A stretch of DNA of 64,000 nt from a virus (IMGVR_UViG_3300034105_002625:25437-89436), one strand, 5' to 3'. Positions 4,133 to 43,831 are shown, counted from the first letter of the stretch. Notes: generated by a model from the letters alone, not told the origin. Numbers and translations are program-made.

Positions 4133-4996
4133 ATGTCTAAAAAACATGTTGTAGTATCCTTAAGTGGAGGAATGGACTCAAGTACTTTATTACTTAGATG
4201 CCTAAAAGAGTATGACACAGTTACTGCTATTAGCTTTGACTATGGTCAAAAACACAGAGTAGAGCTAGAGAGAGCTCAATCATTGGTAAACTATATTGGA
4301 GAAGAATCATCATCACAGACTGAATTACGTTATCGTCAAATTAAACTAGACGGATTAGTTGATCTATTAGATTCAGCTTTAGTAACTGGGGGTAAAGATG
4401 TACCAGAAGGTCATTACGAGCAAGACAATATGAAAGAAACAGTTGTTCCTAACAGAAACAAGATGTTCGCTTCTATTGCTCAAGCAGTAGCTTTATCGGT
4501 TGCAAATCGTACAGGAGAGACTTGTGATATTGCAATGGGAATTCATGCAGGTGATCATGCTGTTTATCCAGACTGTAGACAAGAATTTAGAGATGCAGAT
4601 GATAATGCCTTCAGAATGGGTAACTGGGATGCTGAAAGAGTAGGTTATTTTACACCTTATCTTGATACAGACAAATTCGGTATCTTACAGGATGGAGAAG
4701 TTTTATGTAAAGAGTTGTATTTAGATTTTGATGAAGTTTATTCAAGAACTAATACTTCTTATAAACCAATATGGATACCAGGACCTGAAAGTAAATCAAG
4801 AGTAGAAGAAACTCACAGAACAAAATGGGGTGAATGGTACTCAGATTATAAATCAGCATCTTCAGTAGAACGTATCGAAGCATTTATCAAACTAGGAAGA
4901 AAAGATCCAGTTGCTTATGCAGACGAAACAGGACCAGTAACATGGGAAGTAGCAAGAGATGCAGTTCAAAAAGTATTAACAGAACATAATAATTAA
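4133..4996 (+). CDS. queC: QueC-like 7-cyano-7-deazaguanine (preQ0) synthase homolog, atypical (no C-terminal Zn-Cys cluster, ~60 aa C-terminal extension)
   Basis: PP-loop SLSGGMDSS near N-terminus; QueC-like YPDCRQEF and TPYLDTDK motifs; CxxCxxC zinc ribbon of canonical QueC not present. Confidence 0.7.
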   Translation: MSKKHVVVSLSGGMDSSTLLLRCLKEYDTVTAISFDYGQKHRVELERAQSLVNYIGEESSSQTELRYRQIKLDGLVDLLDSALVTGGKDVPEGHYEQDNMKETVVPNRNKMFASIAQAVALSVANRTGETCDIAMGIHAGDHAVYPDCRQEFRDADDNAFRMGNWDAERVGYFTPYLDTDKFGILQDGEVLCKELYLDFDEVYSRTNTSYKPIWIPGPESKSRVEETHRTKWGEWYSDYKSASSVERIEAFIKLGRKDPVAYADETGPVTWEVARDAVQKVLTEHNN

Positions 4997-7354: not shown

Positions 7355-7360
7355 CAATAT

Positions 7361-7431
7361 TGCCCGTTCGTATAAAAGTAGTACACATGTCTTTGACACA
7401 TGCGGAGAAGGAGCGTTACCTTCATGGGCAA
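7361..7431 (+). tRNA. tRNA-Gln (anticodon TTG) with non-canonical T-loop AGCGTTA
   Basis: acceptor TGCCCGT/ATGGGCA (7 bp incl. G-U); anticodon stem CATGT/ACATG with loop CTTTGAC; T-arm GAAGG-AGCGTTA-CCTTC. Confidence 0.45.
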
Positions 7432-7443
7432 CAAATTAAATTT

Positions 7444-7514
7444 CTAGTAGCGAAGCTAGGTTACATGCCTCACTTGGACTGAGGAGTACGCAGGTTCGAA
7501 TCCTGCCTATTAGA
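7444..7514 (+). tRNA. tRNA-Pro (anticodon TGG)
   Basis: acceptor CTAGTAG/CTATTAG (one G-U); anticodon stem CCTCA/TGAGG with loop CTTGGAC; T-arm GCAGG-TTCGAAT-CCTGC. Confidence 0.55.
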
Positions 7515-7519
7515 CAATC

Positions 7520-7590
7520 GCCCTCTAGGCTTTAAAGTGAAGCACCTAGCTTTTAACTAGGGTAAGAAGGAGCATTACCTTCAGGGGGTA
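7520..7590 (+). tRNA. tRNA-Lys (anticodon TTT) with non-canonical T-loop AGCATTA
   Basis: acceptor GCCCTCT/AGGGGGT; anticodon stem CCTAG/CTAGG with loop CTTTTAA; T-arm GAAGG-AGCATTA-CCTTC. Confidence 0.45.
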
Positions 7591-7649
7591 CACGGATGAG
7601 ATTGTTACTAATTCATAGAACTGCATGGTGTGAGCGTAGAATTAGATTT

Positions 7650-7720
7650 GCCTCGTTGGCGTAATGGGAGCGTATTTCTTTTACATGGAAATGGCAGTGG
7701 TTCGATTCCACTACGAGGTA
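7650..7720 (+). tRNA. tRNA-Val (anticodon TAC)
   Basis: acceptor GCCTCGT/ACGAGGT; anticodon stem TTTCT/GGAAA with loop TTTACAT; T-arm AGTGG-TTCGATT-CCACT. Confidence 0.55.
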
Positions 7721-7921
7721 CTAAGTAAGTTAATATGCTGTGAAAGCTTCAATGAGCGCAAGTTGAAGTTAGGTGGGTTCGAGCCCCTCTACTGTAGTAA
7801 TAGCCTAAGTCGGAGGCAGCCAAGTAGCAGATAACATATTATAGCCGATTTGGGTTGTGCACCTCGTCCGAGAAGCCCTAATAGTTCCTAATAGTTCGGT
7901 ATGGAACAACTTACTTAAAAT

Positions 7922-7992
7922 GGGGACAACAGGCAAGGTGCCGAGCAGCTCTGTAAAAGCTCACTGGGTAGGTTCGATTCCTACTGGCCCCA
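7922..7992 (+). tRNA. tRNA-like gene, tentative anticodon GTA (Tyr) in a class-I (short variable arm) scaffold
   Basis: acceptor GGGGACA/TGGCCCC (one A:G mismatch); T-arm GTAGG-TTCGATT-CCTAC; 4-bp anticodon stem AGCT/AGCT with loop CTGTAAA. Confidence 0.3.
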
Positions 7993-8098
7993 CAAAGTCA
8001 TGGCATCAAATCCCGGTAGGGGTGCTGACTTAAAATAAACAACGATGGTGAAAATGGAGTCCTGCAGGCTAACCAGAAGTAACAACGAGGGGATAATT

Positions 8099-8171
8099 GG
8101 GGATTAAGCTAATCTAGTGAAAGCGCTAGCCTGAAGAGTTAGAGAGATCGGAGCGTAACCGATAGTCCCCA
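8099..8171 (+). tRNA. tRNA-Phe (anticodon GAA) with non-canonical T-loop AGCGTAA
   Basis: acceptor GGGGATT/AGTCCCC; anticodon stem CTAGC/GTTAG with loop CTGAAGA; T-arm ATCGG-AGCGTAA-CCGAT. Confidence 0.45.
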
Positions 8172-8178
8172 CAATATT

Positions 8179-8251
8179 GGTCTGAAGCTTAAGAGGTATA
8201 CAGCGGAGGTTTGTTAAACCTAGGATAGCAGGTTCGAGTCCTGTCAGACCA
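8179..8251 (+). tRNA. tRNA-like gene, anticodon unresolved
   Basis: perfect acceptor GGTCTGA/TCAGACC; T-arm CAGG-TTCGAGT-CCTG; anticodon arm does not fold canonically by eye. Confidence 0.3.
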
Positions 8252-8478
8252 GCAAAACTACTGAAATTGAATGACACGAGCTTCATACGTTCGAAAGGAG
8301 TCATGCAGTAGTTTAAAATGTTCGTATAGATGTGCTGTGGATACGCAGGGAACACATCGAGTGGGTTAATGATGGTAGTAGGTACACAACACTCCTTAAT
8401 ACTAGGATTGGAGCGAAGGGTTGATGCATACTGCAGGTAATTAACAAGACTGGTTCGATTCCAGTTACGGGCGCAATT

Positions 8479-8550
8479 TCTCCTATAGTAGAATGGTTAG
8501 CACACATCTCTGATAAGGATGAAATGGAAGTTCAATTCTTCCTAGGAGTA
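8479..8550 (+). tRNA. tRNA-Ile (anticodon GAT)
   Basis: acceptor TCTCCTA/TAGGAGT (1:72 mismatch); anticodon stem CATCT/GGATG with loop CTGATAA; T-arm GGAAG-TTCAATT-CTTCC. Confidence 0.5.
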
Positions 8551-8662
8551 CAAAAGTTACCACGCTTGTTCCGTCAGTGGTTGTAAAGTCGAATCAATAA
8601 ACGGAACCCCAAATGGAGGTCTTGCCTTAGTAGACTAAAGATTCTAAACGACAACTTTAAAT

Positions 8663-8745
8663 GGAAAGTAAATCAACTAGGAGTTGAGACCGCTTGCTAA
8701 GCGTATCGTGCCTTCGGGCATGGGGTTCGATACCTCTACTTTCCT
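8663..8745 (+). tRNA. tRNA-Ser (anticodon GCT), class II
   Basis: perfect acceptor GGAAAGT/ACTTTCC; anticodon loop TTGCTAA on a short G-C stem; variable-arm hairpin GTGCC-TTCG-GGCAT; T-loop TTCGATA; 83 nt. Confidence 0.45.
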
Positions 8746-8955
8746 CTTTAAAAACCTGGTCCCTGTCCTCATAAAGTGTTTAAGGAACACAGGAGTTGAA
8801 TGTGCATTCGGGGCGGATAGTGGTGGGACACTGATAAATAAAATCTTAAGCACAAAGATAAGTTAACGGGTTCTTATCAACTACCGACTTGATCTAGGAT
8901 CGAAAATATCTCATAAGTATTTTCAGACAAGAGCGTAACTTGTAGTCGGTACAAA

Positions 8956-9034
8956 GCTAAAGTGGTGAAATTGGTAAACACTCCCATCGAGAGATGGTGC
9001 GGATTTTGTAGGTTCGAGTCCTACCTTTAGTGTA
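8956..9034 (+). tRNA. tRNA-like gene, anticodon unresolved
   Basis: acceptor GCTAAAG/CTTTAGT; T-arm GTAGG-TTCGAGT-CCTAC; 79 nt. Confidence 0.3.
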
Positions 9035-9038
9035 TATG

Positions 9039-9110
9039 GTGTTTCTAGCTTAATCGGTAAAGTGCTTCACTGTGAATGAAGAGAACAGGGTTCGAAACCC
9101 GGAAACACAC
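9039..9110 (+). tRNA. tRNA-His (anticodon GTG) with extra 5' G(-1)
   Basis: anticodon stem CTTCA/TGAAG with loop CTGTGAA; 8-bp-type acceptor GTGTTTC/GAAACAC; T-loop TTCGAAA. Confidence 0.5.
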
Positions 9111-9204
9111 GACGACGCCCAAAGGACGATCGACCTGGCCAGAGACTAGTTCTTGCAAACTCAATGCCTAAAGTTGAGCGGCCAATCTATGGGATTGGCT
9201 TTAC

Positions 9205-9277
9205 ATCCCTGTGGTGAAACGGTAAACACAACGAGTTTAAGCCTCGTAAGCTGCAGGTTCGACTCCTGTCAGGGATA
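9205..9277 (+). tRNA. class-I tRNA with apparent anticodon TAA (Leu-type anticodon without long variable arm), A73
   Basis: perfect acceptor ATCCCTG/CAGGGAT; anticodon stem ACGAG/CTCGT with loop TTTAAGC; 3-nt variable region; T-arm GCAGG-TTCGACT-CCTGT; 73 nt. Confidence 0.4.
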
Positions 9278-9282
9278 CAAAT

Positions 9283-9355
9283 GGTCTTGTAGCATAAATG
9301 GAAATGCACTTGAATACGAATCAAGAGATTGTAGGCTCGAATCCTACCAGGACTT
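9283..9355 (+). tRNA. tRNA-Arg (anticodon ACG)
   Basis: acceptor GGTCTTG/CAGGACT; anticodon stem CTTGA/TCAAG with loop ATACGAA; T-arm GTAGG-CTCGAAT-CCTAC. Confidence 0.6.
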
Positions 9356-9360
9356 CAATT

Positions 9361-9432
9361 GCCCTATTAGTTAAACGGATATAACGAATCTCTTCTAAAG
9401 ATTAATTCTAGGTTCGATTCCTGGATGGGGTA
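9361..9432 (+). tRNA. tRNA-Arg (anticodon TCT)
   Basis: acceptor GCCCTAT/ATGGGGT; anticodon stem AATCT/AGATT with loop CTTCTAA; T-arm CTAGG-TTCGATT-CCTGG. Confidence 0.6.
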
Positions 9433-9495
9433 CAAAAAAATCGTATTGGAAGAAAGTTTGATCAACTTTCGTAGGTTAAGCGATATCCTACAAAT

Positions 9496-9566
9496 GCAGG
9501 TCACAGACAAGGTGTCGGTACGGTCTCCAAAACTGCTACGGGTAAGTTCGATTCTTACGGTCTGCG
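9496..9566 (+). tRNA. tRNA-Trp (anticodon CCA)
   Basis: acceptor GCAGGTC/GGTCTGC; anticodon stem CGGT/ACTG (+1 mismatch) with loop CTCCAAA; T-arm GTAAG-TTCGATT-CTTAC. Confidence 0.5.
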
Positions 9567-9598
9567 CAAAATAAATTGTTTCATTTAAAATTAAAATC

Positions 9599-10105
9599 AT
9601 GAGTAAGTACCAAAGAACACTGGTAATTGATTCAAGCTTTATGGCAAGATCTATTATCTCTACCGAAAGAGCTTTCGTGATTTCGTATAAGGGTAATGCA
9701 GAAGTTATAGCTGAACATCCAGAAACATTCGGATTAGTAAATCCGGATTTAAAAATTAATAAACCTTCAATCATTAGGGTTTACAAATACGTAAAACAAG
9801 ACATTCAAAAAGTTCCTCTAACAAGAGAGAACATTTATCGAAGAGATAATTACGAATGTGTTTATTGTGGATCAAGTTACTTGAAGTCACTAACACTTGA
9901 CCATGTCATCCCACAATCAAAAGGTGGAGCAAATGCTTGGGATAATTTAGTAACAGCATGTAGAACTTGCAATTCAGAAAAAGCAGATTTAACTCTTGAG
10001 GAATATGGTAAAGACATAGTAGAACCAAAAAGACCTCATTATCTAATGCTTATGAAACAGTTAACATACATTCCAAAAGAATGGGAAACATTTTTATTTT
10101 TCTAG
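9599..10105 (+). CDS. free-standing HNH homing endonuclease inserted in the tRNA array
   Basis: 168 aa; CVYCGSSY...LDHVIPQSKGGANAWDNLVTACRTCNSEK is an HNH/zinc-ribbon motif; located between tRNA-Trp and the second promoter of the array. Confidence 0.8.
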   Translation: MSKYQRTLVIDSSFMARSIISTERAFVISYKGNAEVIAEHPETFGLVNPDLKINKPSIIRVYKYVKQDIQKVPLTRENIYRRDNYECVYCGSSYLKSLTLDHVIPQSKGGANAWDNLVTACRTCNSEKADLTLEEYGKDIVEPKRPHYLMLMKQLTYIPKEWETFLFF

Positions 10106-14255: not shown

Positions 14256-15398
14256 ATGGAAAATAATAACAGTGTTTGCTTTATAGCAAAAATAAATGAA
14301 GTAAGAGCAATTGAAGGAGCAGATAACATCGAACTTGTAATCGCAGGTGGGTGGAATGCTATTACTAAAAAAGGTGAATTTAAAGTAGGTGATGAAACAA
14401 TCATTGCAACTACTGATGCAGTTATACCAGAATCTCTTTCTGAGGAAATGGGAGTTGCTTCTTACCTAAGAAAAGGAGGTAGAGTAAGAACTGTTAAACT
14501 AAGAGGAGTTTATTCTGAATGTTTAATCATTCCAATGACTTACCTTAGGGGTAAAGCCACAATGGGGGATTGGGATTTAAAAGAAGGAAGTGACTGCATG
14601 GAACTATTAGGTATCACCAAATACGAACCACCAGTTAAACAAATTCAACTTGCTTCAGGTAGAAAAATCAAATGGAGAGACAATCAAAACTTCCATATCT
14701 ATTACAAATTCCCAAACCTTAAAAACGTTGATGGAATGTTTACAGAAGAAGATACAGTAGAGATTTCTCGTAAAATTCATGGTACAAATGCTAGATACGG
14801 TATTGTAAAAAAGACTAAATTGTCATTCTGGGATAAAGTAAAAAAATTCTTTAGATTAGCTGATAAGTGGATTAACTACGAATACATTTACGGTTCACAT
14901 AACTGTGAGAAAGGATCTGACTCTCAAGGATTTTATTCTGAAGATGTTTGGAAAACAATTGCTGAGAAGTATGATATTAAAGCTAAGCTTTGGAAATATG
15001 TTAAAGATACAGCTAATATTGTAGACATTGGAAGTGGTATAGTACTCTATGGAGAAATTTATGGAGCAGGTATTCAAAAGAACTATGACTATGGATTGGA
15101 TGATATTAAATTTATAGGATTTGATACAACTATGAAAGGTGACTATAATTCACCAGCGGGTACTTACGGTGCATTTCATTCACTAGACTTACCTTATATT
15201 GAAGTACTTTATTTTGGACTTTGGAATCAAGAAGTACAGGATAAGTTTGTATTTAACAACTTCATTGAAGGAACAAAAGTACCACATGAAGGAATTGTAA
15301 TCAAACACAGTTCAGGAGATAGAAAAAAAGTAGCAAAGGTAATCAATCCAGACTATTTGATCTACGGAGAGAAGAATGATGTAGGAGATTCACATTAA
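14256..15398 (+). CDS. ATP-dependent RNA ligase (Rnl2/Rnl5-like) with N-terminal OB-fold tRNA-binding-like domain
   Basis: 380 aa; nucleotidyltransferase motif I KIHGTN (lysine-adenylate site, as in T4 Rnl2); first ~100 aa resemble the Myf/Trbp111 tRNA-binding OB fold (…GADNIELVIAGGWNAI…LRGVYSECLIIP). Confidence 0.65.
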   Translation: MENNNSVCFIAKINEVRAIEGADNIELVIAGGWNAITKKGEFKVGDETIIATTDAVIPESLSEEMGVASYLRKGGRVRTVKLRGVYSECLIIPMTYLRGKATMGDWDLKEGSDCMELLGITKYEPPVKQIQLASGRKIKWRDNQNFHIYYKFPNLKNVDGMFTEEDTVEISRKIHGTNARYGIVKKTKLSFWDKVKKFFRLADKWINYEYIYGSHNCEKGSDSQGFYSEDVWKTIAEKYDIKAKLWKYVKDTANIVDIGSGIVLYGEIYGAGIQKNYDYGLDDIKFIGFDTTMKGDYNSPAGTYGAFHSLDLPYIEVLYFGLWNQEVQDKFVFNNFIEGTKVPHEGIVIKHSSGDRKKVAKVINPDYLIYGEKNDVGDSH

Positions 15399-26046: not shown

Positions 26047-26625
26047 ATGAAAAAGTTTTTATTATTACTTTTACTTCCGCTAATAGGCTTTGGACAACTA
26101 AGAGATAGCATTTACGTAAAGACAGACATCTACGAAGTAATGTACTCTGAAACATTGGAACAACCATTATGGGTAAAGTATACAGTGGCTTGTACCGGAG
26201 CAGGAGCATCTAGAAAAGGAATGGACTTTTATACAGATAAAACAATCCATACCTCAGATGCAAAAGATTATGCATTCAATGTTTACGATAAAGGACATTG
26301 TGCACCTGCAGCAGATTTTAATTGTACTAGAGAGATGTTATTTAAAACATTCTCATATTTGAACTGCACCCTTCAGAACGAAAGATTAAACAGAGTGCAT
26401 TGGAGATTGTTGGAAGATTATGAAAGATTACTAGCATATACCGAAGGACCAGTCAATGTTGAAATAAAAATAGTATTTGACAAAAGTCCCAAGAGAGTAC
26501 CTGCAGGTGCAGCTATCCCTACCGCTTTCTATAAAATTATTAAAACAAAGAATAAGTCACTTAAGTTTTTCTTTAAGAATGAACAACCAACCAAGCCGAC
26601 GTTTGTCGACTATCAAATCAAATAG
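26047..26625 (+). CDS. secreted DNA/RNA non-specific endonuclease (Serratia NUC / EndoG family)
   Basis: 192 aa; signal peptide MKKFLLLLLLPLIGFG; active-site-like YDKGHCAPAADF (cf. DRGH motif). Confidence 0.55.
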   Translation: MKKFLLLLLLPLIGFGQLRDSIYVKTDIYEVMYSETLEQPLWVKYTVACTGAGASRKGMDFYTDKTIHTSDAKDYAFNVYDKGHCAPAADFNCTREMLFKTFSYLNCTLQNERLNRVHWRLLEDYERLLAYTEGPVNVEIKIVFDKSPKRVPAGAAIPTAFYKIIKTKNKSLKFFFKNEQPTKPTFVDYQIK

Positions 26626-26627
26626 TT

Positions 26628-27023
26628 ATGGCATTAAAAATAGGAAATAAGATATTCATAAGCTGGGATGATATGAACATCCTAGTTGATGAACTCTGCA
26701 GTACGATTTCAAAATCAGGAGCAGAAATTAAATCAATTACAGGAATTGAAAGAGGAGGATTAATACCAGCGGTAATGATCTCACATAAGCTAAACATTCC
26801 TTATGTAACGAAAATCAATAAGTATACTCTTGTTGTAGATGATATTTGTGATACCGGAGAGACGTTAAAAAAGACTGTAGCAGGTTTTACAGCAACACTT
26901 CATTATAAGAAGACAGCAATCTTTACACCGGACTTCTATTCAAAAGAAGTAGGAACAGAGTGGATTGTTTACCCTTGGGAAAGAAATGACTCAGAAACTA
27001 TTCAAGATTATTTGAAAAAATAG
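26628..27023 (+). CDS. small type-I phosphoribosyltransferase (xanthine-guanine PRT / Gpt-like)
   Basis: 131 aa; PRPP-binding motif LVVDDICDTGETL; IERGGLIPA region resembles Gpt. Confidence 0.6.
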   Translation: MALKIGNKIFISWDDMNILVDELCSTISKSGAEIKSITGIERGGLIPAVMISHKLNIPYVTKINKYTLVVDDICDTGETLKKTVAGFTATLHYKKTAIFTPDFYSKEVGTEWIVYPWERNDSETIQDYLKK

Positions 27024-27094: not shown

Positions 27095-27805
27095 ATGTCA
27101 AATAAAAAATTTATCGACGGTACAGAATTAGTACAAGCCGGATTCGCTAATGGTATTTCATCTCAATTAGCTAAAAAACAATTAACAGATGGTCCAGAGG
27201 CAAGACTAACTGAAGTAGAAAAGCAACACATAATCGAAGATGCAGCAGAAGCATTTGGTAACTTCTTAACAGCTTTAGGTACTGATTGGAAGAATGATCC
27301 AAATTCATCTGATACTCCAAAGAGAGTTGCAAAGGCTTATGTAAATGATCTATGGGCAGGAAGGTATGCACCACTTACTCAAATCACAGCATTTCCTTCA
27401 GATGGATATGATGGAATAGTTCAAGAGAGTAACATACCAGTTACTTCAATGTGTTCACATCACCACCAAACAATCTCCGGAGAGGTAAGCATAGCTTATA
27501 TTCCCTCTAAAGATGGAAAGGTAGTTGGGCTTTCAAAACTAAATAGAATTGTAGAGCAGTTTGCTAGACGTGGAGCAATCCAAGAACAGTTAACAGTTGC
27601 AATTCATAATGCAGTAGATAAAATCTGTGAAGGGAATCTAGGAGTAGCAGTAGCAATCTCAGCAACACATAACTGCGTATCATGTAGAGGAATTAAACAT
27701 CAAGGAGCTTCAATGCAAACAGCAAAGCTAACAGGATGTTTCTTAGAAGAAGATTCAGCAAGAGCAGAATTCTATTCAAATATTAAACTCGGAAAAAATA
27801 ACTAA
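27095..27805 (+). CDS. folE: GTP cyclohydrolase I
   Basis: 236 aa; MCSHHHQ (cf. CEHH) and HNCVSCRGIKHQG (cf. HxCMxxRGV) signature motifs. Confidence 0.85.
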   Translation: MSNKKFIDGTELVQAGFANGISSQLAKKQLTDGPEARLTEVEKQHIIEDAAEAFGNFLTALGTDWKNDPNSSDTPKRVAKAYVNDLWAGRYAPLTQITAFPSDGYDGIVQESNIPVTSMCSHHHQTISGEVSIAYIPSKDGKVVGLSKLNRIVEQFARRGAIQEQLTVAIHNAVDKICEGNLGVAVAISATHNCVSCRGIKHQGASMQTAKLTGCFLEEDSARAEFYSNIKLGKNN

Positions 27806-28066: not shown

Positions 28067-28591
28067 ATGATAACAGATCCAAAAGTACCTTTTATTGATG
28101 AGGTAGAAGAGTTTAATGCCGTAATGGGCAAACCTAACAACTATGAACCAACTATCCCCGAAAGAAAAGAATGGGAGTTTGTATACAATTTCATCCTTGA
28201 GGAATTGGAAGAATATAGAGAAGCTTGCGAAAGAGGAGACATCGTTGAGGTTTTGGATGCTTTGTGCGATATTGCTTATGTTTCCCTTGGGAACGGTACT
28301 ATGTTACATGGCCTTAAGGATAAGATATGGCCAGCATATCAAGAAGTACAGGCATCAAATATGTCTAAAGCTTGCAAAACAGAAGACGAAGCTTTACAGA
28401 CTGTCATTAAGAGAGCGCTCGAACAGAATGAAGCATGTCATCATGAAAAAGTTGGAGACTATTATATCGTCTATAGAACAAGAGATAGAAAAGTAATGAA
28501 GAACGTTAACTATTTCCGTCCGGACTTAAAACAATTCTTTACAGATAAAGAACTTCAGAAGTCATATTTAAAACAACTAACAGGAGAGTAG
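28067..28591 (+). CDS. MazG-like all-alpha nucleoside triphosphate pyrophosphohydrolase
   Basis: 174 aa; acidic helix pattern E-x2-EE-x2-EA…D-x2-E…D typical of phage MazG-like NTP-PPases. Confidence 0.45.
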   Translation: MITDPKVPFIDEVEEFNAVMGKPNNYEPTIPERKEWEFVYNFILEELEEYREACERGDIVEVLDALCDIAYVSLGNGTMLHGLKDKIWPAYQEVQASNMSKACKTEDEALQTVIKRALEQNEACHHEKVGDYYIVYRTRDRKVMKNVNYFRPDLKQFFTDKELQKSYLKQLTGE

Positions 28592-28592
28592 T

Positions 28593-28790
28593 ATGCAAAA
28601 AGCATTAGACCATTTAGAGAAGCATAAAGTCTTTATTGAGACTTTAGGAACAGATATGATACCTTTATCGGAAGCTTACAAGGCAGTGGAGTTATCAATC
28701 GATGAACAATTACAGGACACTTTATCTTTACTACAGGAACAACTCGGAGGATTGACAGAAGAACTAGAAATACCAGAAGAAAATGATTAA
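28593..28790 (+). CDS. hypothetical acidic protein
   Basis: 65 aa ORF. Confidence 0.25.
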   Translation: MQKALDHLEKHKVFIETLGTDMIPLSEAYKAVELSIDEQLQDTLSLLQEQLGGLTEELEIPEEND

Positions 28791-29577
28791 GATAGCTCAC
28801 GAATCACCAAAAAGCATATTCAAACAGGTACAGAGTGTAACTGACTATGACTATGCACTTGTACATTTATTTGAAGAAGATCCTGAATACCTACAGCAAT
28901 TTCAAGAGGCAAAGGAAAAAGGAAGAGAGATTATTCTAGATAATTCTATCTTTGAATTAGAAGAAGCTTTTGATGCAGAGAAGTTTGCAGGATGGGTATT
29001 AGAGTTACAACCAGATTGGTATATAGTTCCTGATGCTTTAGAGGATGCAAAGAAGACTTGCTCACAAATGGCAAATTGGATAAACAAATATAAAAATCTT
29101 CCAGGAAAGAAGATAGGAGTTGTTCAAGGAACAACCTATCAGCAGATTAAATCTTGTTACGAATACATGGATAAGATTGCTGAAGTTGATATGATTGCAA
29201 TTTCATTTGACTATTCTTACTATGTTAAATCAGTTCCGCATCCAAACAAATATGTTTCCTGGATGATGGGTAGAGTAAAACTATTAGGAGATTTATTAAA
29301 GGATGGAATAATAAATGAGAATAAGAAGCATCACTTATTAGGATGCGGATTACCTCAAGAGTTTGCTTTCTATTCAGATTATAAATGGATATACTCTTTA
29401 GATACTTCCAATCCAGTTGTTCACGGAATAAAAGGAATTGAATACAGAGAAGACGGACTATGGTCAAAAGAATCTCAGAAGTTATTTGAATTAATAAATC
29501 ATCAGGTAGAAGATATTAATCCAATACTATATAATATCAATAAGTTCAAATGGTTTACAAATGGAAGCAAAGTATAA
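28783..29577 (+). CDS. dpdA: DpdA-like 7-deazaguanine DNA transglycosylase (tRNA-guanine transglycosylase superfamily, no zinc site)
   Basis: 264 aa; TGT-like blocks GVVQGTTYQQ (cf. GIVQGG), MIAISFD (cf. GYAIGGL), HLLGCGLP (cf. LMGVGTP), YSLDTSNPV (cf. FDCVLP catalytic Asp); no CxCxxC…H zinc motif. Confidence 0.55.
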   Translation: MIKIAHESPKSIFKQVQSVTDYDYALVHLFEEDPEYLQQFQEAKEKGREIILDNSIFELEEAFDAEKFAGWVLELQPDWYIVPDALEDAKKTCSQMANWINKYKNLPGKKIGVVQGTTYQQIKSCYEYMDKIAEVDMIAISFDYSYYVKSVPHPNKYVSWMMGRVKLLGDLLKDGIINENKKHHLLGCGLPQEFAFYSDYKWIYSLDTSNPVVHGIKGIEYREDGLWSKESQKLFELINHQVEDINPILYNINKFKWFTNGSKV

Positions 29578-29729: not shown

Positions 29730-30257
29730 ATGATTAGACCTTGGATAGCATTTTTTAGTCAAACAGGATCAGAGATCGTAGAAGTATCAAAGCTTCTAGG
29801 AAGATGGCCTGATATGATAGTAACAAACGAAAGACCAGAACATCTTAGAAAGATTCATCCGGCTTTAGAGAACAAGCATTTAATCTTCGTAGATAATAAA
29901 CCTTCAGAAGAAGAATTAGGACTAATATTAGGTCACTATAAAGAACCTTTAGTAACTCTTCATGGATGGTTAAGAGTTATGCCTCCGGATATCTGTAATA
30001 GGTTTGAAATCTATAATGGACATCCAGGACTTATAACTGAACATCCAGAACTAAAAGGAAAAGATCCACAACAAAAAGCTTTTGACTTAGGATTAGAATC
30101 TTCCGGATGTGTTATTCATAGAGTAACAGAAGGAGTTGATGAAGGAGAGATACTTCGAAGTAGAAAAGTTTCTATAAAAGGGTTGGAAATAGGAGAATTA
30201 TTTCATATCTTACATAGTATATCAGTAAGTCTTTGGGTAGACTTCTTAAAAAATTAG
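29730..30257 (+). CDS. formyltransferase (PurN / Fmt catalytic-domain family)
   Basis: 175 aa; N-x-HPGL (YNGHPGLITEHPELKGKD) and downstream catalytic Asp (EGVDEGEIL) match the formyl_trans_N fold. Confidence 0.6.
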   Translation: MIRPWIAFFSQTGSEIVEVSKLLGRWPDMIVTNERPEHLRKIHPALENKHLIFVDNKPSEEELGLILGHYKEPLVTLHGWLRVMPPDICNRFEIYNGHPGLITEHPELKGKDPQQKAFDLGLESSGCVIHRVTEGVDEGEILRSRKVSIKGLEIGELFHILHSISVSLWVDFLKN

Positions 30258-30259
30258 TT

Positions 30260-30784
30260 ATGAAAAGAATAGCATTAGTAGGAGCATCATCAGTAGGTAA
30301 GACTACGGTATATGAATTACTTAAAAGTAAATTACCTGAGTATGATTTCATAAATGAATCAACAAGAACGGTTGGTAAATTTGGATTTCCTATTAATGAA
30401 GCAGGAACTTCTGAAACACAGCTTGCTATTTCTTCTTTCCATTTAGAAGCTCTATTAGCTCCTAAGGATGTAATCTTAGATAGATGTTATTTGGATTTGG
30501 TAGTATACTCTACTTATATGGATAAGTTATCTACTAGCGCATATGATTACATATTAGATACTTGGGTAAGAGTTAGGCATCAGTATACACATTTTATTTA
30601 CTTCCCTATCGAATTTGCATCAGTAGACGATGGAGTAAGAAGTGTAAACGAAGAATGGAGAGAGGCAATTGATAAGCAGTTTGAAATTAACTTAAAAGCA
30701 ATTAAATTTGCTGGAGGAGATTATTTAACAGTAACAGGAAGTCCTAATCAAAGAGTTGAACAAATATTAAACTACATAAAATAA
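30260..30784 (+). CDS. P-loop NTPase / small-molecule kinase-like protein
   Basis: Walker A ALVGASSVGKTT; start adjusted to Met 30260 (MKRIALVG). Confidence 0.5.
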   Translation: MKRIALVGASSVGKTTVYELLKSKLPEYDFINESTRTVGKFGFPINEAGTSETQLAISSFHLEALLAPKDVILDRCYLDLVVYSTYMDKLSTSAYDYILDTWVRVRHQYTHFIYFPIEFASVDDGVRSVNEEWREAIDKQFEINLKAIKFAGGDYLTVTGSPNQRVEQILNYIK

Positions 30785-30785
30785 T

Positions 30786-31712
30786 ATGACACAAGAATTA
30801 AATCAAGCAGAAGTTGTAAAGATTGCAGGAAAGCATCTAGGACAAGTAGGTGGAGCAGGTTATAGCGATACTTATGATCCAAGCCTATTGGTAGAAATTC
30901 CACGTTACTTGAATAGAGAAGCGTATGGAATTGATGATAACAGTTTACCATTCGTGGGAGGAGATGTATGGAATGCATACGAAGTATCTGCAATTACTAC
31001 AAAAGGACTTCCAGTTGTTGGAATGTTAAAGATTTGGTATCCAGCAGATTCAAAACTTCACGTAGAGTCTAAATCAATTAAATTGTATTTGAATTCATTC
31101 AATATGACTCAATTGGGAGAAACAGATCATGAATGTATCAAGTTACTAAAACAAAGAGTAAAGAAAGACTTATCTGACTTACTACAAACAAAAGTACAGG
31201 TAGAGATGTTTACCTCAGAGCATTCTCCAAGCTATGCCTTCAAAGGATATGCACCACTAGATGCTTTAGTAGATCTAAATGCAATTGAATTTACTTCTTA
31301 CCATTCAGACGCTACACAATTGGAAACAGAAGAAGTAGATGAGGATGTTGAAATAGGAGAAATAAAAGTACAATCAAATCTTTTAAGATCAAATTGTAGA
31401 GTAACAAATCAACCAGACTGGGGTGATGTATTTATTCACATCAAGCCTAAAGCAGGAGTTGTTCCTAATCTACAATCACTAGCAAAATATATTGTAAGTC
31501 ATAGACAAGTAAGTCACTTCCATGAAGAGATTTGTGAAATGATCTACATGCACTTAAAAGAAGCTTACAATCCAGAAGAATTAATGGTAGCTTGTCTTTA
31601 CACTCGTAGAGGAGGATTAGATATTAATCCAATTAGAGCTTCACATAAGAAACTAATACCAGGATTCTTTACAGACATTACTTGTAGAATGGCTAAAACA
31701 TTACGTCAATAA
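30786..31712 (+). CDS. queF: QueF-type NADPH-dependent 7-cyano-7-deazaguanine (preQ0) reductase, bimodular type
   Basis: 308 aa; QueF motif ESKSIKLYL and catalytic-Cys block CRVTNQPDWGDV. Confidence 0.65.
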   Translation: MTQELNQAEVVKIAGKHLGQVGGAGYSDTYDPSLLVEIPRYLNREAYGIDDNSLPFVGGDVWNAYEVSAITTKGLPVVGMLKIWYPADSKLHVESKSIKLYLNSFNMTQLGETDHECIKLLKQRVKKDLSDLLQTKVQVEMFTSEHSPSYAFKGYAPLDALVDLNAIEFTSYHSDATQLETEEVDEDVEIGEIKVQSNLLRSNCRVTNQPDWGDVFIHIKPKAGVVPNLQSLAKYIVSHRQVSHFHEEICEMIYMHLKEAYNPEELMVACLYTRRGGLDINPIRASHKKLIPGFFTDITCRMAKTLRQ

Positions 31713-32040: not shown

Positions 32041-32052
32041 ATAAAATCAGTT

Positions 32053-34386
32053 ATGCAAATAGAAAAAAAGTACTACCATGTTGACAGTATCGAGACTGTT
32101 AATCTTCTTATCGAACATATTAATCAGTCAGAGGTTATTGCCTATGATACTGAGACAAGTGGCTTAAATGTTAGAAAAGGATCTATCGTAGGATGGTCCA
32201 TATCAGGAGAAGAAGGAATAGGATTTTATCTCCCTACTCAGAAATGGAATACAGAAACAAATCAATTGGAAGAATGTAGTATTGGTGGCAAAGGAGCACA
32301 TGGTATTACTAAAAAGTTACTCCCGCTGCTTAAGGGTAAGAAACTAGTAATGCACAATGCTTCTTTTGACTGCCGTTTTACAAAGAACTATTACGGAGTA
32401 TCTTTATTAGAAGATCTTTGGGTAGATACAGCTCTACTTGTTCATACAGTACAGGAAGAGGGAGCAGGTATGGGAGTATTTGGATTAAAAGCATTAGCAA
32501 TCTCTATTCAGAAAGAGATTGGATTAGATGTACAAGAAGCAGCCAATAAGGAACAAGTAGAGTTAAAAGAATCTATTAAAGCAAACGGAGGATCAACCAC
32601 GAAAGACCTCTATGAAATTTTCAAAGCAGATATGGCAATTCTGTCAAAGTATGCTGCAGCCGATACAGATTTAACCCTCAGGGTTTGTAATCACTTCCTA
32701 AAAGTGTTAAAGGCGGAAGGATTAGAGAAATTCTTCTTTGAAGAAGAAGTAATGCCTCTTTATAGAGAAGTAACTATTCCAATGGAAGAGTTAGGAGTAG
32801 CATTAGATCTTCCACTACTGGAAAAGACTAAAGAGGATATTACAAATGATTTACAGTCAAATAAAAAGATTGTAATCGATAGCATTTTAAGTATTCCAGA
32901 GGCCAAGGAATGGGTAGTCGATACAGCACTATATACTTATCCACCTTCGCATAAAGGAAACTGGGCACAGAATTTAATTATGCTTCATTCACTTCCCCTA
33001 GAAAGAAGCGAGAAGACTAGAAAGTATTCTTTAACTAAGAAAGCTATTGACGAATTAGATGAGAGTAACATAAAACAATTTCTACTAACAGGAGATTTAT
33101 CTCTACTAGACGAAATGGAAGTTGTTAGAATCTCTATGTCAATGTGGAAGGAAGACAATGAAGGAGACTATTTGAATATACAATCAAAGAAACACTTAGG
33201 TGAGATTGCATTTAAGTATATGGGAATTAAACCTCTTACTCAGACTAAAAAAGGACAAGATCAATTCGATATGGATATGTTAGAGGAACTAGCCAAGACA
33301 TATGAATGGGCAAATAATCTTAGAACATATAATAAGTTACTAAAGATTAAATCAACCTACATCGATAGATTCCTAGACGGTCAAGAAGACGGAAGATACT
33401 ATTTCTATTATAAGCAGCATGGTACAGTATCAGGACGATATGGTTCAGATGCACAACAATTACCTAAACCTAAAGAAGAAGGAGAAGATACCCCACTACT
33501 TGTAAAATATACAAATGTAGTAAGAGAGTTCTTAATTGCAGGAGAAGGAAGAAAGTTAATCGATAATGATTATACTTCTCTAGAACCTCACTGCTTTGCT
33601 TCTGTAGCAGGTGATATTAATCTTCAAGAGATCTTTAACAACGGATGGGATTTTTATTCTACTGTTGCCATAAGAACTGAGAAGCTAGATCAAGATAAAG
33701 TAAAGTATCCAAATGGTGTTTCACCTGATACTAAATCTCCTATCTTCTTAAAGAAATTAGATCCAGTAAAAAGAAATCAAGCAAAGGCTTATTCATTAGG
33801 AATTGCATACGGAATGGAAGCATACGCATTGGCTAAAACTCTAGATATATCTCAGAAAGAAGCTGATACTCTTGTAGCAGGTTACCTAGATGGTTTTCCT
33901 CAATTAAAAGAGTGGAGAGTTAATTCTAGAGAGCAAGTAAAACAACATGGGTATATCCAAAATAAAGTAGGACGAATCAGACACTTACCAAAAGTAAAAC
34001 TTATCTTTGAGAAATTTGGAGATCAAGTATTGGATTGGAGATTTAGAAAGAGTCTAGAGAATCAATACGGAAAAGAGCCTGTAATGCAGATGTATAGAGA
34101 TTATCGAAATGGATTGAACAACTGCTTGAATTATCAGCTACAGTCACTAGCAGCGGCGGTTGTGAATAGAGCAGCAGTACAGATCAACAGAAAGGCAAAA
34201 GAGTTAGGAATAGATGCTAGAGTACAGGCACAGATTCATGATCAACTTATCATAAACATTAGAGAAGATCAAGCAGAAATGTTTATGCCTTATGTAAAAG
34301 AGCTAATGGAACTAACAACACAACTTCCAGGAGTAACTCTAAAGGCACCACCACAAATAGCAAATAACTTTGCAGAAGGTCATTAG
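32053..34386 (+). CDS. family-A DNA polymerase (Pol I-like) with 3'-5' exonuclease domain
   Basis: 777 aa; exo motif AYDTETSGL; pol motif A DYTSLEP, motif B RNQAKAYSLGIAYGM, motif C QIHDQLI. Confidence 0.9.
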   Translation: MQIEKKYYHVDSIETVNLLIEHINQSEVIAYDTETSGLNVRKGSIVGWSISGEEGIGFYLPTQKWNTETNQLEECSIGGKGAHGITKKLLPLLKGKKLVMHNASFDCRFTKNYYGVSLLEDLWVDTALLVHTVQEEGAGMGVFGLKALAISIQKEIGLDVQEAANKEQVELKESIKANGGSTTKDLYEIFKADMAILSKYAAADTDLTLRVCNHFLKVLKAEGLEKFFFEEEVMPLYREVTIPMEELGVALDLPLLEKTKEDITNDLQSNKKIVIDSILSIPEAKEWVVDTALYTYPPSHKGNWAQNLIMLHSLPLERSEKTRKYSLTKKAIDELDESNIKQFLLTGDLSLLDEMEVVRISMSMWKEDNEGDYLNIQSKKHLGEIAFKYMGIKPLTQTKKGQDQFDMDMLEELAKTYEWANNLRTYNKLLKIKSTYIDRFLDGQEDGRYYFYYKQHGTVSGRYGSDAQQLPKPKEEGEDTPLLVKYTNVVREFLIAGEGRKLIDNDYTSLEPHCFASVAGDINLQEIFNNGWDFYSTVAIRTEKLDQDKVKYPNGVSPDTKSPIFLKKLDPVKRNQAKAYSLGIAYGMEAYALAKTLDISQKEADTLVAGYLDGFPQLKEWRVNSREQVKQHGYIQNKVGRIRHLPKVKLIFEKFGDQVLDWRFRKSLENQYGKEPVMQMYRDYRNGLNNCLNYQLQSLAAAVVNRAAVQINRKAKELGIDARVQAQIHDQLIINIREDQAEMFMPYVKELMELTTQLPGVTLKAPPQIANNFAEGH

Positions 34387-34449: not shown

Positions 34450-36398
<1,949 letters not shown>

Positions 36399-41099: not shown

Positions 41100-42542
41100 A
41101 TGAAAGAAAAATTTCGTTATGTTAAGAAAGAAGATCGTAAAAAGATACTTCTGTTATGCGATGATATTAGGATGCATTCCGGTATCGCAACGATGGCTAG
41201 AGAGATTGTTGTAGGAACATCTCATCACTTTAACTGGATCAATCTAGGAGCTGCAATTAACCACCCCGAAGCAGGAAAAGGATTTGACATCTCAGGAGAG
41301 GTTAATAGGTTAACAGGGCTAGAAGATTCAGATGTAAAGGTATTGCCTAACAATGGTTATGGAGATGCTATGCAAATTAGAGCTTTAATTGCACAAGAAA
41401 AGCCAGATGCTATTTTTATCTTTACAGATCCAAGGTACTGGGTATGGTTATTTGAAATAGAAAGAGAGATTAGAAATGAAATTCCTTTGATGTACTTAAA
41501 CATTTGGGATGACTATCCAGCTCCTCTTTATAACAAACCGTACTACGAGTCATGTGATTTGTTAATGGCAATCTCAAAACAAACTAAAAATATTAATGAA
41601 ATAGTTTTAGGAGAAGCAGTTGAGAATAAGATTTTAAAATATGTTCCTCATGGAATAAATGAAGAGCACTTCTTTCCAATGACCTCAGTAGATCAACTTG
41701 AGACTTTAGGTCAATTTAAAAAAGACTTATTTCAAGGAAAGGATATCGAATTCGTAGCATTCTTCAATTCAAGAAACATCAGAAGAAAATCTCCAGGAGA
41801 TGTAATTCTATCTTATAGAATGTTCTGTGATTTAATCGGAGAAGAGAAAGCTAAGAAATGTGCTTTAGTAATGCACACACAGGCTGTAGATGAAAACGGT
41901 ACAGACCTTTATGCAGTAAGAGAAGCAATTTGTGATGAGAGTTATGTAAATGTATTCTTCTCACAAGAGAGATTAGATACTCCACAAATTAATTTACTTT
42001 ATAACATAGCTGATGTAGGATTGCTTATCACTTCAAATGAAGGATGGGGATTATCTCTAACTGAGACTATGATGGCAGGTAAAATGATCATAGCCAACGT
42101 AACAGGCGGTATGCAAGATCAAATGAGATTTACAGATGAGAATGGTGAGTGGATTAACTTCACTCCTGACTTCCCTTCTAACCATAGAGGTACTTATAAA
42201 GAGCATGGAGAGTGGGCAGTGCCTGTCTATCCTTCAAACATCTCAATGGTAGGTTCAGTTCCAACTCCATACATCTTCGATGATAGGTGTGCACCAGAAG
42301 ACGTAGCTAAAGCTTTAGAAGAGGTTTACAACATGGGGAAAGAAGAGAGAGATAGAAGAGGATTATTAGCTAGAGAATGGGTAACATCAGATGAATCAGG
42401 AATGTCAGCACGTCAAATGTGTACAAACGTTATTGATGCAATGGATGAGACATTTGAAAAGTTTACTCCAAGATCTAGATTTGACCTATATAAAGTAACA
42501 GACAGACCAAAAAAATATATCACACATAAATTAATATACTAG
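41100..42542 (+). CDS. glycosyltransferase, GT4-like (GT-B fold)
   Basis: 480 aa; NEGWGLSLTETMMAGKMIIA resembles the E-x-FG…EAMAxGxPVI GT4 donor-binding motif. Confidence 0.55.
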   Translation: MKEKFRYVKKEDRKKILLLCDDIRMHSGIATMAREIVVGTSHHFNWINLGAAINHPEAGKGFDISGEVNRLTGLEDSDVKVLPNNGYGDAMQIRALIAQEKPDAIFIFTDPRYWVWLFEIEREIRNEIPLMYLNIWDDYPAPLYNKPYYESCDLLMAISKQTKNINEIVLGEAVENKILKYVPHGINEEHFFPMTSVDQLETLGQFKKDLFQGKDIEFVAFFNSRNIRRKSPGDVILSYRMFCDLIGEEKAKKCALVMHTQAVDENGTDLYAVREAICDESYVNVFFSQERLDTPQINLLYNIADVGLLITSNEGWGLSLTETMMAGKMIIANVTGGMQDQMRFTDENGEWINFTPDFPSNHRGTYKEHGEWAVPVYPSNISMVGSVPTPYIFDDRCAPEDVAKALEEVYNMGKEERDRRGLLAREWVTSDESGMSARQMCTNVIDAMDETFEKFTPRSRFDLYKVTDRPKKYITHKLIY

Positions 42543-42544
42543 TT

Positions 42545-43831
42545 ATGAGTAAACCTACATTAGTAGTAAGCTGTCCAGTAGACACTTACTCAGGATATGG
42601 AGCAAGAGCAAGAGACTTTGTACAATCAATTATCGATACAGATAAGTACGAAGTAAAGATCCTATCACAAAGATGGGGAGGTACTAGATTTGGATATCTT
42701 AAAGATCATAAGAATGAATCTTTAGCCTCTAGAATTATACCACAACTAACACAACAGCCAGACATCTGGATTCAAATTACAGTACCGAATGAATTTCAAA
42801 AGGTTGGTAAATACAATATTGGACTAACAGCAGGAATTGAAACTACAATCTGTGATCCTTCCTGGATTGAAGGATGTAACAGAATGGACTTAGTATTAGT
42901 ATCAGCACAACATGCTAAGAAAGTATTTGAAGATAGTAAATTCAATATGCAAGATTCAAATACAGGACAAGTAACAGGACAGTTAGCACTTAGTACAAAG
43001 GTAGAAGTTCTATTTGAAGGAGCTGATATAGAGAAGTATGCACCATTGTCATGGCCAGTCACATTAGATCTTTCAACTATACCGGAAATGTTCTGCTTCC
43101 TAACAGTAGGTCACTGGCTTCAGGGGTCTCTTGGAGAGGATAGAAAGAATATTGGATACACTATTAAAGCATTCTTAGAAACATTTAAGAATAAAAAAGA
43201 TCAACCGGCACTTATTTTAAAAGTACAAGCAGGAGCAGGAACCTCTATCATGGATAGGGAAGCAGTGTTGGATAAAATTGATGCAATCAGAAAGACAGTA
43301 AAGGGAAAGTTACCAAACATTTACGTACTACATGGAGAAATGTCTGATGCTGAAGTAAATGAACTATACAACCACGGTAAGGTAAAGGCGATGATCTCTT
43401 TAACAAAAGGAGAAGGATTTGGAAGACCTCTACTAGAATTTAGTTTAATAAACAAACCAATCATAGCTTCAGGATGGTCAGGGCATATTGACTTCCTTGA
43501 TAATCGATATACAAAACAAATAGGAGGAACTCTTACAAACGTACATCCATCAGCAGCTGTAGACAAAATGATCTTACAAGAAAGCCAGTGGTTTACACCA
43601 GACGATGCTCTTGTAGGAAAAGCTCTTAAGGATGTATTTGAGGATTATAAACCATATAAGGAATTAGCCAAAAGACAGGGGTATAAGAGTAGAACTGAGT
43701 TCTCGTATGATAAGATGAGAGAGACGCTAGATACTCTTCTAACACAGTACATTCCTGAATTCCCTAAGCAAGTACAGTTAAAGTTACCTCAACTTAAGAA
43801 AATAGAACTACCAAAATTAACTAAAATATAA
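42545..43831 (+). CDS. glycosyltransferase, GT4-like (GT-B fold)
   Basis: 428 aa; GEGFGRPLLEFSLINKPIIASGW matches GT4 motif. Confidence 0.6.
   Translation: MSKPTLVVSCPVDTYSGYGARARDFVQSIIDTDKYEVKILSQRWGGTRFGYLKDHKNESLASRIIPQLTQQPDIWIQITVPNEFQKVGKYNIGLTAGIETTICDPSWIEGCNRMDLVLVSAQHAKKVFEDSKFNMQDSNTGQVTGQLALSTKVEVLFEGADIEKYAPLSWPVTLDLSTIPEMFCFLTVGHWLQGSLGEDRKNIGYTIKAFLETFKNKKDQPALILKVQAGAGTSIMDREAVLDKIDAIRKTVKGKLPNIYVLHGEMSDAEVNELYNHGKVKAMISLTKGEGFGRPLLEFSLINKPIIASGWSGHIDFLDNRYTKQIGGTLTNVHPSAAVDKMILQESQWFTPDDALVGKALKDVFEDYKPYKELAKRQGYKSRTEFSYDKMRETLDTLLTQYIPEFPKQVQLKLPQLKKIELPKLTKI

Follow-up and report, generated by a model that had tools for sequence, protein, structure and literature searches.

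A predicted Gpt-class phosphoribosyltransferase without flexible loop II is linked to FolE in phage 7-deazaguanine DNA-modification clusters

Introduction

Phages that replace all guanine in their DNA with 7-deazaguanine derivatives first polymerize G and then excise it, and each replacement base costs them one further GTP. How this twofold demand for purine is met, and how so much poorly soluble guanine (tens of thousands of molecules per genome) is disposed of, has so far not been addressed. A gene in a 64,000-nucleotide stretch of viral DNA (IMGVR_UViG_3300034105_002625, 25437-89436; hereafter the window) bears on both. It lies at 26628-27023 on the plus strand, next to folE, and encodes a putative phosphoribosyltransferase (PRTase; the protein is called PRT below) of 131 amino acids (aa), raising the question of what a PRTase does in a cluster for 7-deazaguanine DNA modification.

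The published phage 7-deazaguanine pathway (FolE, QueD, QueE, QueC, QueF, DpdA1-4 and DpdL/M/N; Hutinet et al. 2019, 2023) does not include a PRTase. The words "phosphoribosyl", "PRPP" and "Gpt" are absent from the 2019 Nature Communications paper, and the 2023 Nucleic Acids Research (NAR) paper, which defined fdPreQ1, DpdA3 and DpdN in Flavobacterium phage immuto, does not mention a PRTase. The gene thus stands outside the published DpdA scheme, as the original prediction, made from the sequence of the window, had held. In the literature searched, no paper connected DpdA to a purine PRTase or to guanine salvage of this kind; the two metagenomic papers that name both "7-deazaguanine" and "phosphoribosyltransferase" mean nicotinamide PRTase. 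The link between PRT and FolE in 7-deazaguanine clusters is apparently undescribed.

PRT belongs to the Gpt class by sequence and predicted fold

The open reading frame (ORF) starts with ATG and runs for 131 codons on the plus strand, exactly where the original prediction had placed it. It begins 3 nt downstream of the stop of the preceding ORF, and its stop lies 71 nt ahead of folE. The protein matched Pfam PF00156 (33.2 bits, above the gathering threshold of 26.3), PHROG 8995 "phosphoribosyl transferase" (E = 1.5e-16) and, by phmmer, Gpt-class enzymes in the PDB (E = 2e-9). The PDB sequence matches were exclusively Gpt-class 6-oxopurine PRTases, namely GpT-1 and GpT-2 of S. solfataricus, 1VDM of P. 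horikoshii and XGPRT of E. coli. There were 1182 homologues among the protein clusters at 90% identity and 4264 among the cluster representatives at 50% identity (922 with E < 1e-10), and the identical protein occurred on 29 contigs. The ORF is a bona fide gene, with similarity far beyond chance. Judged from its sequence, PRT is assigned to the Gpt class (xanthine/guanine-type) of type I PRTases. Its score against the NCBIfam Gpt equivalog NF006613 was 52.6 bits, below the curated cutoff of 138, and it is therefore named a Gpt-class variant and not Gpt.

The structure of PRT was modeled with AlphaFold on an alignment of 61 diverse family members, which gave a predicted local distance difference test score (pLDDT) of 87.7; a single-sequence model (pLDDT 36) was discarded. 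The model has the Rossmann-like alpha/beta core expected of type I PRTases. Foldseek searches with it returned only PRTases (best E = 6e-11), with template-modeling scores (TMq) of 0.72-0.79 to HGXPRT/XGPRT structures; the matches were the enzymes of the sequence search and, in addition, H. pylori XGHPRT. Conservation was counted across the same number of aligned family members (61), with E. coli Gpt as the reference for register. The gene and the elements recognized in it, among them the loops that bind pyrophosphate (PPi) and phosphoribosyl pyrophosphate (PRPP), are as follows.

26628..27023, plus strand: predicted loop-II-less Gpt-class phosphoribosyltransferase ("mini" PRT), 131 aa; from the ORF, Pfam, PHROG, PDB search and model
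26751..26759, plus strand: PPi-binding loop R42-G43-G44 (S-R-G-G in E. coli Gpt), invariant in 61/61; aligned to Gpt
26802..26825, plus strand: short coil, residues ~59-66, in place of a ~26-28-residue beta-hairpin/flexible loop II; from spacing and model
26832..26867, plus strand: PRPP-binding loop VVDDICDTGETL (D71, D72, D75, G77, T79), with D71, D75 and G77 invariant in 61/61
26907..26909, plus strand: K94, aligned with Lys115 of Gpt; K/R in 54/61
26961..26981, plus strand: purine-stacking/hood motif W112-I-V-Y-P-W-E118 (W134-I-E-Q-P-W-D in Gpt); from the alignment
26982..27020, plus strand: conserved C-terminal tail (DS.TIQDY), low pLDDT, homologous to the PRT-FolE fusion junction; from alignment and model

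Both motifs on which the original prediction relied were recovered, the PRPP signature VVDDICDTGETL at residues 69-80 (nt 26832-26867) and the Gpt-like GGLIPA block as RGGLIPA at residues 42-48 (nt 26751-26771). The former contains the expected acidic pair and D-[ST]-G-x-T after a hydrophobic strand (VVDDICDTGET, residues 69-79), and at the latter E41-R42-G43-G44 is in register with SRGG of Gpt. The alignment also placed the Trp-Ile and P-W-acidic hood/stacking motif of Gpt and its Lys in PRT. Residues R42, G43, G44, D71, D75, G77, P116 and E118 were invariant across the 61 members, and W112 and W117 were near-invariant, as were Ser52-His53 and Pro101, which are specific to the loop-less family. 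From what is known of HGPRT/XGPRT structures, we take D75 to be the counterpart of the Asp contacting purine N7, K94 that of the Lys contacting O6, and W112 that of the purine-stacking Trp.

The spacing from RGG to DD is 26 residues in PRT versus 47 in E. coli Gpt, which confirms the shortfall of ~20 aa relative to Gpt that had been predicted and localizes it. HMMER and MAFFT agreed on one single deletion, at residues ~59 to ~66, and in the model only an 11-residue coil lies between helix 45-55 and strand 67-74. In the alignment and the model, flexible loop II, the beta-hairpin that closes the active site, was absent, with no strands predicted for residues 56-66. Read in this way, the deletion corresponds to the whole ~21-residue beta-hairpin bearing flexible loop II.

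Compared with E. coli Gpt/XGPRT (1A95-1A98, 1NUL) and archaeal HGXPRT/GpT (S. solfataricus 4Z1O/5BQO, P. horikoshii 1VDM), phage PRT has the fold, RGG, PRPP loop, Lys and W-I-x-x-P-W-acidic motif in register, but it is without the ~21-28-residue beta-hairpin with flexible loop II. It differs further in having Ser52-His53, Pro101 and the conserved C-terminal tail, and in being phage-restricted and tied to FolE. Loop II has been removed experimentally from B. subtilis HPRT, in which it covers the active site; the variant that had lost the loop completely was a dimeric PRTase that bound pppGpp much more weakly (PMC6783271, eLife 2019), and the paper does not state how active the deletion variants are. 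Those variants are engineered and of the HPRT class, whereas phage PRT is a natural, predicted loop-II-less protein of the Gpt class.

Loop-less PRT is adjacent or fused to FolE in phages

We examined the genes around PRT in viral loci. The locus samples were ranked by similarity and are not phylogenetically independent, the co-occurrence counts ignore kinship, neighbors were called by tblastn/HMM thresholds, and contig ends hide some neighbors. Among the 80 viral loci with a stand-alone PRT retrieved with the family alignment, FolE, mostly as the adjacent gene, and QueE were each found in 56, QueD in 46, a MazG-like gene in 38, QueC in 36 and DpdA3 in 34. The commonest gene order was DpdA3-QueC-QueD-QueE-FolE-PRT-MazG, and the loci without pathway genes were mostly contigs ending at PRT or the most distant relatives. 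With the loop-less form defined as an RGG-to-DD spacing of at most 40, 7-deazaguanine genes lay nearby for 60/67 viral loop-less PRTs, as against 2/12 viral full-length Gpt-like proteins and 2/67 cellular full-length Gpt-like proteins.

A tblastn search of isolated phages placed distant relatives of PRT within genes that carry the annotation "GTP cyclohydrolase I". Three phages, Vibrio phage VpKK5, Sphingomonas phage MMDA13 and a Stenotrophomonas phage, have a FolE of ~300 aa, its first ~115 residues being a loop-less PRT that is followed by a complete FolE. Such a PRT-FolE fusion occurs in ~35 isolated phages of Vibrio, Pseudomonas (PaMx25/NP1 group), Stenotrophomonas, Xanthomonas, Variovorax and Sphingomonas. 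IMG/VR held 36 loci with a single-ORF PRT-FolE, whose neighbors included classic DpdA (31), QueE (31), QueD (26) and QueC (25), and 21 more loci with separate but neighboring PRT and FolE. The fusions keep the PRPP loop in 27/27, the Trp motif in 26/27 and RGG in 24/27. The tail of stand-alone PRT aligns with the junction leading into the FolE core in the fusions, and the stand-alone and fused architectures are therefore homologous through the junction.

The closest cellular relative of PRT among ~185,000 species-representative genomes was 39-46% identical. The clearest cellular case with pathway genes was a Lachnospiraceae metagenome-assembled genome that carries a loop-less PRT in a phage-like DpdA-QueC-PRT-QueE-FolE cassette (5730-9600 of the locus); this contig is probably a prophage or a mis-binned gut phage. 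These results show that loop-less PRT, adjacent or fused to FolE, is a phage-specific Gpt subfamily of 7-deazaguanine DNA-modification clusters and not a stray salvage gene. The original prediction had seen neither that the lost ~20 aa are the flexible loop nor that proteins without it make up a large subfamily that is specific to phages and tied to FolE.

A link of PRT to DpdA instead of FolE was also considered. It was weakened by the position of PRT beside FolE and by Brevundimonas phage MaInes, in which FolE adjoins a full-length 161-aa Gpt-like gene (6331-7486 of the locus), beside a deoxynucleoside monophosphate (dNMP) kinase and ribonucleotide reductase (RNR), and no QueD/E/C or DpdA was detected in the ~57 kb (~83%) examined of the 69-kb genome.

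The 7-deazaguanine cluster of the window

The window is a relative of phage immuto, with ~84% nucleotide identity across the cluster, and immuto carries the same PRT gene in the same place (78% aa identity, annotated "phosphoribosyltransferase"). Annotation of the neighboring genes confirmed that PRT lies inside a deazaguanine cluster and adjoins folE, and the window holds the complete fdPreQ1 gene set described for immuto. The cluster runs in the order QueD (24322), QueE (24773), PRT (26628), FolE (27095), MazG-like (28067), DpdA3 (28783), DpdN (29730) and QueF (30786); one of its members is a nucleoside triphosphate (NTP) pyrophosphohydrolase.

4133..4996, plus strand: QueC, far from the remaining cluster
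24322..25558, plus strand: QueD (24322-24783) and QueE (24773-25558); profile matches
27095..27805, plus strand: FolE (GTP cyclohydrolase I), conserved neighbor or fusion partner of PRT; profile matches
28067..28591, plus strand: MazG-like all-alpha NTP pyrophosphohydrolase, a co-occurring accessory gene; profile matches
28783..29577, plus strand: DpdA3, 87% identical to the immuto "DNA guanine transglycosylase"; protein comparison
29730..30257, plus strand: PurN-like formyltransferase, the DpdN of the fdPreQ1 pathway; profile matches
30233..30784, plus strand: AAA_28/dTMP-kinase-like P-loop protein, a conserved DpdA3 neighbor; profile matches
30786..31712, plus strand: QueF (preQ0 reductase); profile matches

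QueC lies ~20 kb upstream of the other cluster genes, so the pathway is split in this phage. As expected of an accessory gene of the pathway, PRT was adjacent or fused to FolE in clusters with QueD/QueE and a DpdA in the window, in immuto and in the surveyed loci.

PRT is a dispensable partner of the pathway

We next anchored the survey on DpdA3, using the 80 closest IMG/VR loci, all with DpdA3 and DpdN-type relatives, in which PRT was sought by profile. PRT was present in 38 of these loci and was near-universal among those whose DpdA3 is at least 70% identical to that of the window. A neighboring DpdA3 clade has a divergent ~165-170-aa PRTase directly upstream of FolE (about 8050-8560 in 20.8-kb loci); the PRT slot upstream of FolE is conserved while the length of the protein varies between clades. 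In the more distant DpdA3 clusters with FolE, QueC/D/E, QueF and DpdN, PRT was mostly not found within 10 kb. PRT and the MazG-like gene were both present in 33 of the 80 loci, both missing in 37 and discordant in 10 (Fisher p = 7e-12, kinship ignored), and the two look like one accessory module.

Completely substituted phages differ in this gene. Campylobacter phage CP220, in which according to the literature 100% of G is replaced as 2'-deoxy-7-amido-7-deazaguanosine (dADG), yielded no PRTase, whether in the 40 kb surrounding its DpdA3 or in a tblastn search of the whole genome. Phage phiST has 100% 2'-deoxy-7-deazaguanosine (dDG), and in immuto G is fully replaced by fdPreQ1 (2023 NAR paper). 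The phiST PRTase has 142 aa and retains part of the insert; its gene belongs to an RNase H/PRT/dNMP kinase/RNR block at a distance of 19 kb from the cluster. The presence of PRT as a marker of complete substitution was ruled out by CP220, by the roughly half of DpdA3+DpdN loci without PRT in 10 kb and by the fusions that occur with classic DpdA. PRT is a frequent, specialized but dispensable partner of the pathway, since it was not detected within 10 kb in about half of the DpdA3 loci, nor in CP220.

A possible role in guanine recycling

We propose that PRT is an active enzyme that makes guanosine monophosphate (GMP) from guanine and PRPP in the service of the FolE-initiated pathway, a reading to which we give a probability of roughly 45%. 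The substrate and the direction of flux are deduced from the sequence, the model and the gene context. PRT would join free guanine to PRPP, and the host GMP kinase and nucleoside diphosphate kinase would return the resulting GMP to GTP. FolE would then use this GTP irreversibly for the 7-deazaguanine base, the purine ring being destroyed at a cost of one GTP per base. Free guanine could come from DpdA3 base exchange, which would release one guanine per modified position, and from the breakdown of host nucleic acid, so that a cycle would run from guanine through GTP, preQ1 and DNA back to guanine. For the phage, full substitution would cost less purine, and guanine, which is poorly soluble and would rival preQ bases for the transglycosylase, would be removed. 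The loss of loop II may, in the two likeliest ideas, free PRT from host (p)ppGpp control, by analogy with the B. subtilis HPRT variants, and/or be connected with docking on FolE.

The amounts involved could be large. A fully substituted genome of ~160 kb (immuto-sized) would contain ~55,000 G at 34.5% G+C. Bursts of tens of particles lead, by estimate, to millimolar guanine per cell, which is far above the solubility of guanine and above the sub-micromolar Km of enzymes of the tRNA-guanine transglycosylase (TGT) family. Guanine above the Km of TGT-family enzymes would therefore compete with preQ bases.

The original prediction had offered two functions for PRT, and guanine recycling is the better supported of them. 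It is favored by the retained Gpt base and PRPP motifs, by the fusion or adjacency to FolE and by the free-base-using DpdA that is nearly always co-encoded. Because such a DpdA is co-encoded (DpdA3 in 34/80 stand-alone loci, classic DpdA in 31/36 fusion loci), free guanine is expected to be produced and the free 7-deazaguanine base to be needed elsewhere. The other function, conversion of a 7-deazaguanine base to a nucleotide, is disfavored, as the gene was not detected within 10 kb in about half of the DpdA3 clusters, nor in CP220 (around DpdA3 or by tblastn), and is present in classic-DpdA phages. Recycling would also account, tentatively, for the retention of the guanine-reading and N7-partner residues, for the partnership with FolE in both DpdA3 and classic DpdA phages and for the motifs kept in the fusions. 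The accessory distribution fits a booster that is replaceable by host Gpt/Hpt.

Several points weigh against recycling. The loss of loop II possibly has a catalytic cost, and GMP is two kinase steps away from the substrate of FolE, so the fusion would not join consecutive steps. The tight co-occurrence with the MazG-like pyrophosphohydrolase is not explained by simple guanine salvage; that enzyme might clear wrongly made 7-deaza-NTPs, hydrolyze dGTP to dGMP or reduce alarmone levels. Guanine and the 7-deazaguanines share their Watson-Crick and sugar edges, and conservation alone therefore cannot exclude 7-deaza substrates. The presumed roles of Asp75, Lys94 and Trp112 are transferred by homology from HGPRT/XGPRT, and the co-occurrence counts come from similarity-ranked samples in which kinship is ignored.

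Alternative explanations

Recycling has to be weighed against a PRTase of the TubE/ToyH kind, which would join 7-carboxy-7-deazaguanine (CDG), preQ0 or preQ1 to PRPP; the resulting 7-deazaguanine ribonucleotide would be phosphorylated by the P-loop kinase, reduced and incorporated at replication, while the MazG-like enzyme removes dGTP. We regard this as doubtful. TubE (MG706975) and ToyH (ACF06639.1), from the tubercidin and toyocamycin clusters, resemble phage PRT in being PF00156 type I PRTases beside FolE, QueD and QueE homologues. TubE was shown to be a CDG-specific PRTase and is encoded with these homologues and a Nudix NTP hydrolase (PMC6112128), a pair that phage PRT and the MazG-like protein mirror, an NTP pyrophosphohydrolase being co-encoded in both systems (Nudix TubG versus MazG-like). 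However, toy/tub-type clusters have no transglycosylase, whereas the phages have DpdA, and their tailoring genes (GMP reductase, decarboxylase, PurA/PurB-like) did not turn up in the window ORFs scanned, which were those of the cluster and 10 more. TubE is also longer (194 versus 131 aa). Both analyzed PRT-bearing phages, immuto and phiST, replace 100% of G, but so does CP220, for which neither the 40 kb around DpdA3 nor genome-wide tblastn gave a detectable PRTase, and no PRTase was detected within ±10 kb in about half of the DpdA3+DpdN+QueF clusters. Reconstitution of DpdA3/DpdL in E. coli failed, and its authors leave room for "other unknown enzymes" (2023 NAR paper). Crippen et al. 2019 are cited as having found a nucleoside of 7-amido-7-deazaguanine (ADG) in the cytoplasm after infection by a DpdA3 phage, and kinase-like P-loop and phosphohydrolase genes flank DpdA3 in immuto-type phages, phiST and CP220. 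Yet classic-DpdA phages carry PRT fused to FolE, and there PRT would compete with DpdA for the free base; for that class base insertion in vivo has been reported (VH7D DpdA2, 2023 paper). The Asp partnering purine N7 is invariant although a 7-deaza base has no N7, and fusion to the first rather than the last enzyme of the pathway would be unexpected. A fuller pre-replicative route in the all-G-replacing DpdA3 phages appears quite improbable. In this route PRT would make a 7-deazaguanine ribonucleotide, the P-loop kinase-like protein and a host or phage RNR would convert it to a 7-deaza-dGTP analogue, the MazG-like enzyme would deplete dGTP, and DpdA3 would patch residual G or act on nucleotides. 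If true, it would contradict the current conclusion that phages always modify their DNA with 7-deazaguanines after replication, and PRT bears in this way on whether complete substitution is purely post-replicative.

PRT could instead be a non-catalytic or weakly catalytic partner of FolE, a module binding PRPP, GMP, guanine or (p)ppGpp that regulates or stabilizes the FolE decamer, which we consider unlikely. It is specifically the FolE-associated forms that lack the catalytic flexible loop II, many phages have PRT covalently fused to FolE, and the steps of the two proteins are not consecutive. The C-terminal tail, conserved yet modeled with low confidence, behaves as a partner-binding segment might and matches the fusion junction, and a Gpt-like structure with bound ppGpp exists (5vog). 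A pure sensor would, however, be expected to lose some of its catalytic and substrate-binding motifs, and these are strongly conserved in stand-alone and fused forms, the single loss being that of the RGG Arg in 3/27 fusions. The PRT-fold proteins PurR and PyrR act in gene regulation, but we know of no precedent for regulation of GTP cyclohydrolase I by a PRT domain. That PRT is an ordinary phage purine-salvage gene whose adjacency to folE, in a general nucleotide-metabolism module, is incidental is highly improbable and already largely refuted by the context statistics: loop-less copies sit in 7-deazaguanine clusters in 60/67 cases versus 2/67 for full-length cellular homologues, fusion to FolE recurs in many phage groups, and unrelated phage lineages have kept the gene next to FolE. 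The cases that would suit it are the 10/12 full-length viral Gpt-like copies without 7-deazaguanine genes, a Synechococcus phage match and phiST, with its PRT in the RNase H/dNMP kinase/RNR block 19 kb from the cluster.

If guanine recycling is correct, a dedicated FolE-linked loop-less Gpt would be the missing recycling step and a new component in a pathway considered fully enumerated. PRT may also explain the failed reconstitution of DpdA3 systems in E. coli, and it would be a natural example of a type I PRTase working, or regulating, without the catalytic flexible loop.

Other genes near PRT and DpdA3

DpdA3 is consistently flanked by nucleotide-handling proteins, to which the pathway papers give no role. 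An AAA_28/"thymidylate kinase"-like P-loop protein lay beside DpdA3 in 58 of the 80 DpdA3 loci. In CP220, CPT_0057 (20813-21355 of the locus) is an AAA_28-type P-loop protein, 32% identical, directly after DpdA3, and an HD-phosphohydrolase and P-loop fusion lies just upstream. In phiST, the ATPase gp041 (32048-32545 of the locus) adjoins the DpdA3-sized gp042. No sequence relatives of the MazG-like and AAA_28 proteins were found in the PDB.

The ORF that ends 3 nt before PRT (26047-26625, plus strand) encodes a member of the DNA/RNA non-specific endonucleases (PF01223) whose N-terminus resembles a signal peptide (MKKFLLLLLLPLIGFG); in immuto, two small ORFs occupy this place. A homologue of this endonuclease was present somewhere in the cluster in 22 of the 80 DpdA3 loci. 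A nuclease encoded among DNA-protection genes may act against unmodified host DNA and would supply purines for salvage.

Elsewhere in the window, a thymidylate synthase ORF (20687-21967, plus strand) encodes 426 aa, roughly at least 100 aa above a typical ThyA, with what looks like an insertion inside the protein and an extension at its C-terminus. Other genes of the window encode a phage GroEL-like chaperonin (Cpn60_TCP1; 34758-36398), two group-1 glycosyltransferases in tandem (41100-43831) and an RNA ligase with two metallophosphatases nearby (14256-15398).

A different arrangement was seen in PA5oct-like jumbo phages, which carry a gpt-queE pair. In Pseudomonas phage Callisto, a 144-aa Gpt-like gene lies directly upstream of a QueE-like radical SAM gene (5995-8404 of the locus), and the two unannotated ORFs after the QueE-like gene had no Pfam match. 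This Gpt-QueE group may be an unrecognized deazapurine module of jumbo phages.

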